Source: Candidatus Bathyarchaeota archaeon
Lineage (GTDB): Archaea > Thermoproteota > Bathyarchaeia > Bathyarchaeales > Bathycorpusculaceae
Reading direction: 5' to 3'
NCBI GenBank assembly: GCA_963811105.1
Contig: CAWEPZ010000002.1
Location: 224,001-288,000 of the forward strand
Length of the DNA stretch: 64,000 bases
The notes beneath the pieces were generated by a model. That model was not told where the DNA came from and did no database searches. It saw only the letters and a program-made list of their open reading frames with translations. Shown in pieces: positions 38,703 to 56,441 of the stretch. The stretch's first letter is position 1. Each line of letters begins with the position of its first letter. The position numbers and the translations under genes are program-made.

Positions 38703-39806
38703 TTATTGGAAAAAACTTGTTAGTTGTTTTTGCCTTGGTTCTTTCTTGCTGAAACCTGAGACTTTGACGCCGACTCTTCGGACTTCAAGTTGGCTTTCAT
38801 TTAGGAATTTTTCATAGAGTTCTCTCACGTTGTTTTTGATTGTTTCCGTGTCTCTAGCAGGTTGAGCCAGCGTTGTTGACCTGGTTTTGCAGCTTAAATC
38901 GGTCATAACCATGTAAATTGCAACTTGCCTAAAACTCAAGTCTTTCTCCGATAATTCCTTTGATATGTCGGGAATTAGCTCGTCAGTTTTCTGCAGAATA
39001 AACGCTAAATCATGCGTATCCTGTTTTAGCGTGCCAATTCTGCTTATGGATTCTGCTTCGCCTGCTTCTTTAACGGGCTCGTTGTCGACTCCGTTGGAGG
39101 CGTTATGGAAGTAGATGCCCAGGATTTTTCCGAAAATTGCAGTTAGTCTTTGCACGTCAAAGTTGGCGAGGTCGCTGATGGTTTTAATGCCTAATGCTTC
39201 CATTACTACGCTTGTCTTGCGTCCGACACCTAGTAGGCGATTCACAGGCAGCGGCGACAAAAAGCACCCAACTTCGTCTGGGGTGATTATAGTTAATCCG
39301 TCGGGTTTTTGACTGTCGCACGCAATCTTGGCGACAAGCTTGTTAGGACCAACGCCTACAGTGAAGGAAATGCCCACTTCAGCTTTTACTTGGGCTTTAA
39401 TTTTTTGCGCATGCTCCTTTGCTTTTTCAAAGTTGCCTTCAACTTGTTCTGTGACATCCAAGTAAGCCTCGTCTATGCTAACCTGCTCAAAGCTGCTTGC
39501 ATAGCTGCGGAAAATCTGCATTATGCGGTCGCTTATTTGCTCGTAATACTCATGATCAACAGGCAGGAACACTTCTTCTGTGCCTTCTAACTTGTGCTTT
39601 GCCTGGAACAATGGCATACCTGATTTTACGCCGTATTTTCGTGCAACGTAGTTGCTGGTGCTAACCGCACCACTAATCTCTGTGCGCCCCGAGTAAACGC
39701 CGACTACAACTGGCTTATCTTTGATAGTTGGGTTGCGTAGCTCTTCGCATTGGGCAAAGAAATAATCGAAATCTGCCAACATTACAACCCGCTGCTGCAT
39801 TAGCAT
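38703..39806 (-). CDS. dinB: DNA polymerase IV (Y family)
   Basis: DFDYFFAQ, NYVARKYGVKSGMP, SIDEAYLD, NKLVAKIA. Confidence 0.95.
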   Translation of the reverse strand: MLMQQRVVMLADFDYFFAQCEELRNPTIKDKPVVVGVYSGRTEISGAVSTSNYVARKYGVKSGMPLFQAKHKLEGTEEVFLPVDHEYYEQISDRIMQIFRSYASSFEQVSIDEAYLDVTEQVEGNFEKAKEHAQKIKAQVKAEVGISFTVGVGPNKLVAKIACDSQKPDGLTIITPDEVGCFLSPLPVNRLLGVGRKTSVVMEALGIKTISDLANFDVQRLTAIFGKILGIYFHNASNGVDNEPVKEAGEAESISRIGTLKQDTHDLAFILQKTDELIPDISKELSEKDLSFRQVAIYMVMTDLSCKTRSTTLAQPARDTETIKNNVRELYEKFLNESQLEVRRVGVKVSGFSKKEPRQKQLTSFFQ

Positions 39807-40669
39807 TCGCCTCTTGCTTTAGGCATAAGCCATGACCCGTCACATGAAGCCGTATTAAGTTGCGCTAAGCCTTCTCGGCAAACCCCAAACTTCAACCCCC
39901 TCGCTTCAGCAAGGTCACGTACTCCTTTCAGAAGCTTGTACCTTAGGTCTTTAGGCATAAGTGTGCTACCGCCGACTTTTTCTCCCTGCTGAAAAAAGAG
40001 CGGCTTAAGTTTTTCTGCAACTTGAGGCAAGGCTTGGCTAAGCCGAGCCCAATTGTCTGCTTTAGCTTTGTACGTTGAAGCCGTTACATGTTTAACTCCA
40101 ATGCTTGCTAAATAAGCGATAAGTTTTTGCGGTTGATCGTTTACTGAGGGAATGATTGGGTCTATCCGGACCGAGACAGGGATGCCTGCCTTGACTAAAT
40201 CCTGTGCAGCTCTTAGCCTCTGAGAAGGCGAAGGTGCCAATGGTTCGATAAGCCTTGCAATATTATCGTCGTCAGTTGTAATGGTTAATGCTACAGTTGA
40301 TGGAATTTTGCTCAGTAAGTCGTCGTCTCTGGCTACAAGGTTGCTTTTGGTGATTATTTGGATTTTGCAGTTGCATCCCGAGAATATTTCAAGGCATCGT
40401 CGCGTAAAGCCTTCTGACACTTCGGTACGCGGATATGGGTCAGATGAGTTGGCTATTGAAATTGTTTCACCGTTGAGTTTTGACGCTTCCCGTTTAAGTT
40501 GGGCAAGCAGGTCTTTTTTGGGTCTGCAGTCGGTAAAGTTTGGGATGTAGCTGGATGCGTAACAGTAGATGCATCGGTGGTCGCATCCTGTATACGGGTT
40601 AAATGTCAGCTTCGCTGGGCAAGTGCAAAGGCCAGAACGCCAAGGGTCAAAGCTTGTAATTAGGGGCAC
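39800..40669 (-). CDS. Radical SAM protein (SplB-like)
   Basis: NPYTGCDHRCIYCYA, SSDPY, ITKS, RIDPIIP. Confidence 0.9.
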   Translation of the reverse strand: MPLITSFDPWRSGLCTCPAKLTFNPYTGCDHRCIYCYASSYIPNFTDCRPKKDLLAQLKREASKLNGETISIANSSDPYPRTEVSEGFTRRCLEIFSGCNCKIQIITKSNLVARDDDLLSKIPSTVALTITTDDDNIARLIEPLAPSPSQRLRAAQDLVKAGIPVSVRIDPIIPSVNDQPQKLIAYLASIGVKHVTASTYKAKADNWARLSQALPQVAEKLKPLFFQQGEKVGGSTLMPKDLRYKLLKGVRDLAEARGLKFGVCREGLAQLNTASCDGSWLMPKARGEC

Positions 40670-40763
40670 AATTTCACTAAGCTATCTATGTGGGCTAGAT
40701 AGACAAAAACTTTCGCAATTAAAAAAGGGGAATTTGGGGCTTATTTATCCAAAAAAGAGGAGA

Positions 40764-41049
40764 ATTTGTGCACCTGCGTTCTGCATTTGCAGAAGAGATA
40801 ACCAGTTACTACTGGTGGGAGTGCAAATAACGCTCGATCAAGCAAATGTCTTGTGCTGAAGCAGGAACGTTCTGTTGCGAGCCCGACTGGAGGATCGGCA
40901 AGTGACGATACCCCATTGCCTGACGGGGATTGAGCGAGATGAACTTGAGGTATCGTCAATCTTAAAACGCTTAACGGTCGATAGTGGCACCTCCAGATAT
41001 CTTTTGGCACTTATGTTACCCGCAATTTCCGCTCTGTATGCACACAAAT
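40764..41049 (-). ncRNA. Candidate structured noncoding RNA (~285 nt), family unknown
   Basis: Nested stems and closing terminal helix; dyad/TATA promoter upstream; T-tract downstream (40751-40756). Confidence 0.55.
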
Positions 41050-41065
41050 GCCTGCCCTTTTAGAG

Positions 41066-41111
41066 TGCAAAAGCGTTTTCGTCAAGAAAAAACTGAATGA
41101 GGTTAGTCAAG
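41066..41111 (-). promoter_or_regulatory. Degenerate GTCAAG dyad pair, 7 bp, TATA-like box
   Basis: GTCAAGAAAA at 41081, TTAGTCAAG at 41103-41111, minus-strand CTTTTGCA at 41066-41073. Confidence 0.55.
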
Positions 41112-41219
41112 GTTTGAGAACGTTTGAAAAGTCTTCTCTTACTCGCATAGAATGCCGTTAACCTTAAAGTACGCTTTGTTTAGAAAGCATTAAATTCCTA
41201 TCCTTTTCACTACTAACAC

Positions 41220-42627
41220 ATGAAAAATTTTCTCGGCTACCTCAAAGCGGAAAACATGAGCTTATTTACGGATTTTTATGAGTTAACCATGTGCGCAAGC
41301 TACTTTGACAACAAAAATTTTGAGCCTGCCACATTTGACTTATTCATTAGGCGGCTGCCAGAAAACCGCTCCTACTTCCTGTTTGCCGGGTTAGAAGAAG
41401 CCTTGCAGTACCTGCAAAACATGAAGTTTACTGAGGAGCAGCTGGGTTACCTTAAAAAGCAGGGATTCAACCGGACTTTTCTCGATTATTTACGTAGTTT
41501 TAAGTTTTCAGGTGAGGTTTGGGCTGTTCCTGAGGGATCTGTGGTTTTTCCAAATGAACCCTTAATTCGTGTTACAGCGCCGATAATTGAGGCTCAGCTA
41601 ATTGAAACTTTTTTGCTAAACACAGTTAACCTGCAAACTATGATTGCCACAAAAGCCTCGAGGGTAGTGCATGCAGCTAAGGGAAAATCGGTAATTGAAT
41701 TCGGCTTGCGAAGAGAACACGGCATTGACGCTGGAATGAAAGTGGCGCGATAGCAGTTACATTGCAGGATGCCAAGGAACCAGCAACGTTTTGGCAGGGC
41801 AAGCCTATGGCATTCCAGTTTTCGGAACCATGGCACACTCGTTTATCATGTCCTATCCAAAAGAAATTGACGCATTTCGAGCTTTCGCCAAAACTTTCCC
41901 AAACAAGTCAACACTTCTTATAGACACTTACGACGACATTTCAGGCGCAGAAAAAGCTGGAGTTGTAGCTAAAGAGCTTGAGTCTAAAGGCTTTAGGCTG
42001 GGGGGAGTGCGCTTGGACAGTGGCGATTTGGGCGAGGACAGCAAAAAAGTTCGAAAAATTCTTGATGATCAAGGCTTAGATTATGTGAAAATTTTTGCAA
42101 GCGGTGACCTAGATGAATTCAGAATAGACGAACTTCTCACTAATGGCGCAAAAATTAACTCTTTTGGGGTAGGAACAAAAATGGGCACCTCAGCGGATAG
42201 ACCTTATTTAGATGTGATTTACAAACTCTGCGAAACCATGGCTGAAGATGGAAGCTTCTCGCCAATAATGAAGTTAAGCAAAGACAAAGTCACTTTGCCA
42301 GGTTTAAAACAAGTTTACCGCGTTAAAAGTGAAATCGGCTATTTTGAAAAAGATATCATTGCTCTGGCTAATGAAAAAATGCAAGGTGAACCATTGCTTG
42401 TTATGGTCATGGAGAAGGGCAAAATAATCTATAAACTTCCCTCGCTTGAAGAAATTCGCCTTACCGCTGCCGAGAACCTTAGTAAACTTCCAGACAGATA
42501 CAAAGCATTAACTGGCGCACCCGTCTATCCCGTAGAATTAAGCCAAAACTTGCAGAAACTAGTCAAAACCTTGAGGCGTGATTTAACCAAAAATGAAATA
42601 AACCCTACCGTTGGCACTTCTGCTTAA
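41220..42627 (+). CDS. pncB: Nicotinate phosphoribosyltransferase with a +1 frameshift at ~41751
   Basis: TDFYELTM, EFGLRR, GTSNV.AG, GTMAHS, LIDTYD, VRLDSGD, SGDLDE. Confidence 0.9.
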
Positions 42628-56363: not shown

Positions 56364-56441
56364 TGGCGGGCCCGACGGGAATTGAACCCGCGACCTACGG
56401 ATTAAGAGTCCGCCGCTCTAGCCTGACTGAGCCACGGGCCC
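56364..56441 (-). tRNA. tRNA-Lys (CTT), CCA encoded
   Basis: GGGCCCG acceptor stem, GCGGA-CTCTTAA-TCCGT anticodon arm, GGTTCAATTCC T-arm. Confidence 0.97.

Follow-up and report, generated by a model that had tools for sequence, protein, structure and literature searches.

The closest described counterparts of the unit reported here come from Methanosarcina mazei. sRNA154 and sRNA41 are intergenic, trans-acting RNAs whose loop sequences mask ribosome-binding sites (accessible part of PMC5867862), and small-protein-encoding sRNAs ('spRNAs') have been described in the same species (accessible part of bioRxiv 10.1101/2025.10.28.685009). Judged by title, no literature was found that deals with Bathyarchaeia small RNAs or with promoter regulons in this class, including the GTCAAG-box promoter considered below. 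The present locus resembles sRNA154 and sRNA41, as the accessible part of PMC5867862 presents them, in being a small intergenic unit with its own (predicted) promoter and a stem-loop with an exposed loop.

The window, a stretch of 64,000 nucleotides from a Candidatus Bathyarchaeota archaeon (contig CAWEPZ010000002.1, assembly GCA_963811105.1), hosts the candidate unit in a gap of 550 bp between two divergent gene sets. The features of this region are as follows.

38703-39806, minus strand: dinB (IMS family)
39800-40669, minus strand: radical SAM gene (Pfam Radical_SAM)
40670..40748, minus strand: promoter and leader of the radical SAM gene itself, with the GCGAA..TTTTTGT motif at 40702-40716 and an inverted repeat at 40682-40702
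40741..41010, minus strand: 89-aa ORF with a GTG start, in a frame homologous to the ORFs of genomes G084 and G089 and of protein P0002
40751-40756, minus strand: T6 tract (TTTTTT in the sequence), presumed archaeal terminator
40764..40899, minus strand: 3' half of the unit, with small hairpins 40779-40794 and 40801-40816 and the 3' arms of the outer helices
40900..40961, minus strand: central hairpin (5' arm 40961-40947, loop 40946-40915, 3' arm 40914-40900)
40985..41049, minus strand: 5' end and conserved 5' block, with a putative transcription start near 41045 placed from the TATA spacing only
41066..41112, minus strand: GTCAAG-box promoter, consisting of a proximal 20-mer and a distal box
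41100..41168, plus strand: 69-bp solo IS end (DDE transposase family), repeated elsewhere in the genome
41220 onward, plus strand: nicotinate phosphoribosyltransferase gene (NAPRT)

As predicted from the sequence, a separate small transcript of approximately 290 nt would be produced from the minus strand, starting near 41045 and terminating at about 40751. In genome G019 the radical SAM and NAPRT genes are spaced by just 129 bp, and thus the genome considered here has approximately 435 bp extra. Loci related to the unit region come from Bathyarchaeia MAGs of soil, peat and bog. The promoter and leader of the radical SAM gene are conserved in G019, a genome without the unit, and the same holds for the majority of the 75 further upstream regions compared.

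Some features of the flanking genes were observed in passing. The motif GCGAAtAnTTTTTGTyT (40702-40716, minus strand) precedes the start of the radical SAM gene by some 45-50 nt in the majority of the 75 genomes, whether or not they carry the small unit (radical SAM upstream regions L079-L158), and may serve the radical SAM-dinB repair pair as a promoter or operator. The radical SAM leader contains a perfect 7-bp inverted repeat CTATCTA(N7)TAGATAG at 40682-40702, partly kept in G019 and G016. The NAPRT gene (41220-42627) is broken into ORFs of 177 aa and 278 aa in different frames, with a stop codon at 41751-41753; its counterpart in G019 is a single ORF of 469 aa, and that of G124 differs by one gap in the N-terminal part. 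The split results from a frameshift or from faulty assembly. In G021 (L003, G021:C7, 178-1031) the match to the radical SAM gene is fragmented, with TGA and TAA codons inside the gene, which could mean a pseudogene or poor assembly, the genome being 65% complete.

The promoter consists of a proximal 20-mer TTCTTGACGAAAACGCTTTT at 41069-41088 and a distal box CCTTGACTAA at 41103-41112. On the minus strand CTTGAC is followed, after 7 bp, by the TATA-like CTTTTGCA (41088 to 41066), which is the layout of a GTCAAG box pair, 7-bp gap and TATA-like box reported in the first-pass annotation of this DNA. The 20-mer TTCTTGACGAAAAYGCTTTT, with at most two mismatches, has 161 matches in 83 of the 120 genomes of the genus, compared to 11 matches of the reversed control, and the core promoter 20-mer of this genome fits the search pattern perfectly. 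Promoter sites of other genomes bear additional upstream boxes, TTAGTCAAGAAAnnTTGACTAA and AGTCAA. Inspection by eye of sites in other genomes (L015-L050) revealed a common order: the site, a few dozen nucleotides, an SD-like motif, and then an ORF with a hydrophobic N-terminus. A crude regular expression identified 18 promoter sites in this genome, of which 13 precede an ORF with a hydrophobic N-terminus, also judged by eye. The number of sites and the nature of the downstream ORFs argue that the array-type promoter is real, and by this comparison it appears to belong to a regulon of secreted and surface proteins. Of the results, this promoter family is firmer and of wider reach than the unit itself, and it could be used for annotating these MAGs.

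At eight loci (L109, L111, L117, L119, L125, L126, L152, L154) a GTCAAG promoter faces away from the radical SAM gene and drives the neighbouring gene.

DNA searches covered 120 genomes of the genus. A full-length copy of the unit was found in G124 (95% identity over bases 1-347 of 356), and partial matches of 71-72% identity in G089 and G084; the many remaining DNA matches were to the promoter motif alone. Twenty further radical SAM upstream regions were fetched, and these added G127 and G009. A covariance model, R1, comprising the 5' part and the hairpin, was derived from alignment A4. Applied to the 120 genomes, it recovered the six carriers, the syntenic place in G021 with a weak score, and one false match, in G126, which has no hairpin. 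It yielded no new member among 80 named radical SAM loci. At least 119 stretches of metagenome contigs were selected with a degenerate 18-mer, and R1 found no true homologue in 80 of them; the best full-length match in the metagenome loci, L219, was discarded as an unrelated coding region.

Full or partial units are therefore present in six other genomes of the 120 (G124, G084, G089, G127, G009, G021), and in all seven carriers the unit lies directly upstream of the radical SAM gene on the same strand, which agrees with its earlier placement just 5' of the radical SAM-dinB pair. In a quick tree of the radical SAM genes, from which G021 was left out, the six carriers group together without resolved branching; their distribution requires two changes, and none of 500 shuffles had as few. 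The shared site and the clustering of carriers suggest that the unit is a lineage-specific element occupying one fixed site in one subclade of this Bathyarchaeia genus.

Common to this genome, G124, G084 and G089 are the promoter, approximately 60 nt past the predicted start, the central inverted repeat, a 3' block and a T-rich tract. The conserved 5' stretch includes an SD-like motif and [A/G]TGCCAAAA; in this genome the 5' block contains TGTGCA, the SD-like GCGGGT and the GTG start at 41010-41008, and it aligns with those of G124, G084 and G089 and more weakly with those of G127 and G009. The promoter 20-mer is conserved in the unit homologues, and the unit of G021 is without a GTCAAG promoter. 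The 3' half is variable. It aligns poorly with G084 and G089 except for the GGTGCACAAAT block near the 3' end, which is conserved in all four genomes, and it is altogether missing from G127 and G009, whose short forms of approximately 195 nt end at a T-tract about 20 nt past the hairpin. The downstream T-tract noticed earlier is indeed TTTTTT on the minus strand (40751-40756); its counterparts are T6 in G124 and G089 and just TTTCTT in G084, and the short units end with T5 in G127 and T4 in G009. The recurrence of promoter, 5' block, hairpin and T-tract in the loci of relatives upholds the proposal of a separate unit under an array-type promoter.

The 3' GTGCACAAAT block was also considered as a part of the radical SAM promoter. 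This was ruled out, since in comparison with 75 other upstream regions GTGCAC occurs at that place solely in unit-bearing genomes (L150 has GTGCAC elsewhere).

The central hairpin of this genome has ten perfect base pairs with a U-G and a C-G pair on top and two more pairs below a mismatch, closing a C/U-rich loop of 32 nt. When it is extended to 15 pairs (40900-40914 with 40947-40961), 92% of the alignment cells are paired, and 8 of the 15 pairs have compensatory changes on both sides; controls with slid partners gave 30-57% of paired cells and 1-3 compensatory pairs. This covariation is based on six distinct sequences from about five lineages. RNAalifold recovers the hairpin unprompted. All versions fold locally alike, into a long stem with a C/U-rich loop of 21-33 nt, the local z-scores being -2.0 (this genome), -3.5, -1.3, -5.4, -5.6 and -2.8; for the hairpin of this genome, folding of the minus strand gives z -2.03 and folding of the plus strand -1.28. 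Between G127 and G009, 47 of 106 four-fold sites in the radical SAM gene have diverged, whereas the hairpin with the preceding 30 nt is identical at 85 of 90 positions (94% versus 56% at neutral sites). These two genomes keep the hairpin region in the absence of the long ORF, which argues that the hairpin is selected independently of the ORF.

Two contigs add population data. In X9, from a public DNA run with a G124-like population, the hairpin is unchanged. In the low-depth contig X2, position 40904 is changed from G to A, so that the pair is kept, as G-U, only on the minus strand, and further changes occur at 40914, 40927 and 40900, which makes three substitutions and one deletion within or beside the hairpin. 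As a single low-depth variant, 40904 G>A would favour the minus strand. The single hairpin appears, by comparison of the loci, to be the only evolutionarily maintained structure of the unit. With only one conserved hairpin, the unit is at best a modest lineage-specific RNA candidate.

Eleven of the listed differences of X9 in 40720-41051 are G to A on the plus strand, that is, C to U on the strand of the unit and the radical SAM gene. This asymmetric bias might reflect transcription-associated deamination or simply the mutation spectrum of the lineage.

The first-pass annotation had proposed a much larger structure of approximately 285 nt. Every complementarity listed there is present: 40764-40770/41043-41049 (closing helix, 7/7), 40875-40881/41019-41025 (6/7 on the plus strand, 7/7 with one G-U on the minus strand), 40887-40893/40990-40996 (7/7), 40903-40912/40949-40958 (10/10), the hairpins 40779-40794 and 40801-40816 (6 bp each), and the pseudoknot 40831-40839/40928-40936 (9/9 with one G-U on the plus strand, 8/9 on the minus strand). 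However, the fold has no thermodynamic excess. For the whole 361 nt, the minimum free energy is -96.0 on the plus strand versus -96.9 +/- 5.1 for shuffled sequences (z +0.18, 53 of 100 shuffles as good), and -96.2 versus -90.4 +/- 5.1 on the minus strand (z -1.14, 11 of 100 as good). Nor are the outer helices and the pseudoknot conserved. In the alignment of six sequences, 93% of cells are paired in the central helix, compared to 71% in the closing helix, 70% in stem 41019-41025, 80% in stem 40990-40996, 64% in the pseudoknot, and 58% and 75% in the small hairpins. The values for the outer helices (58-80%) are mostly due to the near-identical pair of this genome and G124, and five of the nine pseudoknot pairs depart only by unpaired cells. 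Even between this genome and G124, three of these helices are disrupted, the closing helix by a change at 41045, helix 41019-41025 by one at 41022 and hairpin 40801-40816 by those at 40813-40815; two other changes convert G-U to G-C. Comparison of homologues thus retains the central hairpin, with its compensatory changes in 8 of 15 pairs, and discards the outer helices, the two small hairpins and the pseudoknot; of the original claim, a separate small unit under the array-type promoter, here placed on the minus strand, is supported and the multi-helix structure is not.

No known RNA family was recognised. Rfam 15 searched over the whole window at the gathering score yielded only a tRNA at 56367-56441. 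The sole match in 40600-41250 at E<=10 was RNAI, with 13.5 bits against a cutoff of 47, which is attributable to chance, and five homologous loci had no match at E<=1. The statement that the unit lacks the SRP helix-8 and RNase P CR-I/CR-V layouts is in line with these searches, and the Rfam comparison suggested in the first-pass annotation matched no family in the unit or in the five homologous loci. Inspection by eye for C/D-box, H/ACA and K-turn layouts revealed no convincing motif in the unit.

The coding potential of the unit differs between lineages. The frame is open from the homologous start to the terminator in this genome (89 aa), G084 (96 aa) and G089 (112 aa). The start region, [A/G]TG CCA AAA preceded by an SD-like motif 8-12 nt upstream, is homologous in four genomes. 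Among 5.8 billion proteins, the search with the G084 ORF found itself and P0002, a relative of 95 aa sharing 57% identity with G084 and, over its full length, 33% with G089; the search with the G089 ORF found itself only. The N-termini of the G084 and P0002 proteins are signal-peptide-like by eye, which matches the usual cargo of the promoter. The shuffle P-values for the longest forward ORF are 0.15 in this genome, 0.039 in G124, 0.02 in G084 and 0.003 in G089. Taken together, the ORFs of G084, G089 and P0002 argue for a real protein in those lineages.

In this genome the 89-aa ORF starts with VPKDIWRCHYRPLSVLRL, and no hydrophobic run was seen in it by eye. Its substitutions relative to G124 are distributed as 2/6/2 over codon positions 1/2/3 and cause seven amino-acid changes; purifying selection on the protein was not seen in this comparison, the rate being that of four-fold sites. 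G124 has two extra bases causing a frameshift after codon 6-8, so that the frame from GTG stops after 13 codons. At the 3' conserved block the frame of this genome differs from those of G084 and G089. In G127 and G009 the homologous frame contains stops and the long ORF is absent; the open frame is thus not kept across the homologues. No Pfam family was found for the four local ORFs or for the ORFs of G084, G089 and P0002. The 69-aa ORF 40838-41047, whose conservation had been named earlier as an argument against an RNA, is not conserved, its TTG start being TTA in G124. Judging by the substitutions, the 89-aa ORF here is probably without protein-level selection. Nevertheless, coding ancestry cannot be dismissed, as the frame is homologous to the ORFs of three relatives; on these alignments, the ORF appears genuine in certain lineages, while others seem able to do without it.

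The upstream side of the promoter has been modified by an insertion sequence. In blastn and tblastx searches of 40700-41220 against its own genome, the core is single copy and only the 69-bp IS end is repeated. Its other copies, at C11:324234-324302 (L008) and C6:4136-4201 (L010), have 91% and 89% identity, and both precede an ORF, that of the C11 copy being 495 aa long with Pfam domains DUF772, DDE_Tnp_1_6 and DDE_Tnp_1. G124 has no IS fragment, and its counterpart of 41111-41219 differs at 34 of 109 sites. The fragment adjoins the promoter and partly replaces the upstream operator boxes: of the four present in G084 and G089, two are gone in this genome, and the promoter may therefore be weaker here. 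Since the IS end itself opens with a TTAGTCAAGG box resembling the regulon operator, the exact point at which it meets the promoter is uncertain.

The unit differs from that of G124 at 12 of 301 sites (4.0%) and by two 1-nt indels. As the four-fold sites of the flanking genes differ at 12 of 318 (3.8%), no constraint is detectable on this short time scale. The 62-nt hairpin has no changes, which is not significant (about 2.5 expected). The neutral rate, together with the IS damage to the operator boxes, makes decay of the unit in this genome a serious possibility.

Beside what is directly observed, namely the promoter family, the synteny of the unit, the covariation of the hairpin and the lack of protein-level constraint in this genome, several readings of the product have to be weighed. 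The one we prefer, to which we give an even chance, is a non-coding or no-longer-coding small RNA with a hairpin core, derived from or overlapping a small secreted-protein gene. Hardly any credence is left for a highly structured RNA of approximately 285 nt with a closing helix, three nested stems, two hairpins and a pseudoknot. All its complementarities exist, and the GTGCAC-containing block near both ends in this genome, G124, G084 and G089 would allow some end-to-end pairing; but GTGCAC is itself palindromic and never varies, and is thus uninformative on pairing, the folding stability is no better than that of shuffles, the outer helices at 58-80% paired have few compensatory changes and owe their pairing mostly to this genome and G124, differences in G124 break the closing helix, helix 41019-41025 and hairpin 40801-40816, and the short forms entirely lack the 3' half. 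This model is already largely refuted. We consider it very unlikely that the unit is a cis-acting leader, in which a second, regulon-type promoter and an attenuator-like region would allow read-through into radical SAM-dinB. Its position directly upstream of the radical SAM gene on the same strand in 7 of 7 genomes and the short or imperfect T-tracts of G084 and G009 are in agreement with such a role. However, vertical inheritance yields same-strand synteny by default, and past the T-tract the radical SAM gene has a conserved promoter motif of its own, whether the unit is present or not. A functional gene for the 89-aa protein (41010-40741), with the hairpin as a feature of its mRNA, is improbable here, although the start region and SD-like motif are homologous in four genomes, the ORFs of this genome, G084 and G089 are open to the terminator, those of G084 and G089 have a relative in P0002, and promoters of this type mostly drive secreted proteins. 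Against it are the frameshift in G124 at 95% DNA identity, the mainly non-synonymous substitutions between the two genomes, the conservation of the region in G127 and G009 despite stops in the frame, the length of the ORF, ordinary among shuffles (P 0.15), its frame at the 3' conserved block, which is not that of G084 and G089, and the lack of a Pfam match for any version.

A more serious competitor, unlikely but deserving attention, is a functionless relic, namely a GTCAAG-regulon gene for a small secreted protein that is in decay and whose hairpin is as yet unmutated. The neutral rate relative to G124 (12/301 versus 12/318), the two frameshifting indels, the partial destruction of the operator boxes by the IS fragment, the absence from the ORF of the hydrophobic N-terminus seen in G084 and P0002, and the low-depth strain contig with three substitutions and a deletion in or beside the hairpin all point in this direction. 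On the other hand, the hairpin is intact in this genome, G124 and the X9 population, compensatory changes keep it over much deeper divergence, it is retained in lineages without the ORF, and the core promoter 20-mer matches the search pattern perfectly.

Under the preferred reading of a small RNA with a hairpin core, the GTCAAG-box promoter would drive a minus-strand unit of approximately 290 nt, which the T-tract would end before the radical SAM-dinB promoter. The functional core of the RNA would be the central hairpin 40900-40961 with its large C/U-rich loop, and the RNA would descend from, or overlap, a gene for a small secreted protein whose frame some relatives still keep open. One possibility, rather doubtful, is that such an RNA acts in trans, most likely by pairing of the C/U-rich loop with purine-rich ribosome-binding regions, the mode described for sRNA154 and sRNA41. 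When the loop was paired with 2573 start regions of this genome, the mean duplex energy was -12.42 compared to -12.41 +/- 0.45 for 20 shuffled loops, and the best match had -29.2 compared to -31.6 +/- 2.4, the gene starts being crude. The 5' arm of the hairpin (GAUACCUC) resembles the 3' end of the 16S rRNA of this genome (GAUCACCUCC), and the 3' arm is SD-like; both similarities were noticed post hoc and may be due to chance.

A bolder proposal, which we regard as quite unlikely, is that a regulatory RNA is being born from a protein gene, a dual-function or coding-to-noncoding transition that would tie translation control to the surface regulon. A secreted-protein gene of this regulon would have gained, or always had, the hairpin; the coding frame would then have been lost in several lineages, with the hairpin under strong selection (94% versus 56%).

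If transcribed, the unit would be among the first sRNA candidates with covariation support in the uncultured class Bathyarchaeia, and would show on a small scale how an RNA element can outlive the ORF around it. Its reach is limited, as it is confined to 7 of the 120 genomes.

Going by its sequence, the unit may be described as a narrowly distributed, lineage-specific archaeal small transcript, possibly dual-function, that belongs to no Rfam family. It falls in the size range of SRP RNA and RNase P RNA and has no Rfam match to either. It differs from sRNA154 and sRNA41 in having no sequence or Rfam relationship to them, in coming from another phylum and in being known from DNA alone; moreover, its loop performs in the scan of (crude) start regions as shuffled loops do. 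Like the spRNAs of M. mazei, as described in the accessible part of bioRxiv 10.1101/2025.10.28.685009, it would be a short transcript with a possible double role, as carrier of a small ORF and as an RNA in its own right; unlike them, it is a prediction from sequence, and its ORF is open in some lineages only. Finally, unlike the genes of the GTCAAG regulon, the unit of this genome has an ORF without a hydrophobic segment or protein constraint, and its conserved element is an RNA-type hairpin. It shares with the secreted and surface protein genes of the genus an identical promoter architecture, an SD-like motif and a start codon approximately 35 nt from the predicted transcription start, and its relatives in G084 and P0002 have the signal-peptide-like N-terminus of the secreted proteins of this regulon.
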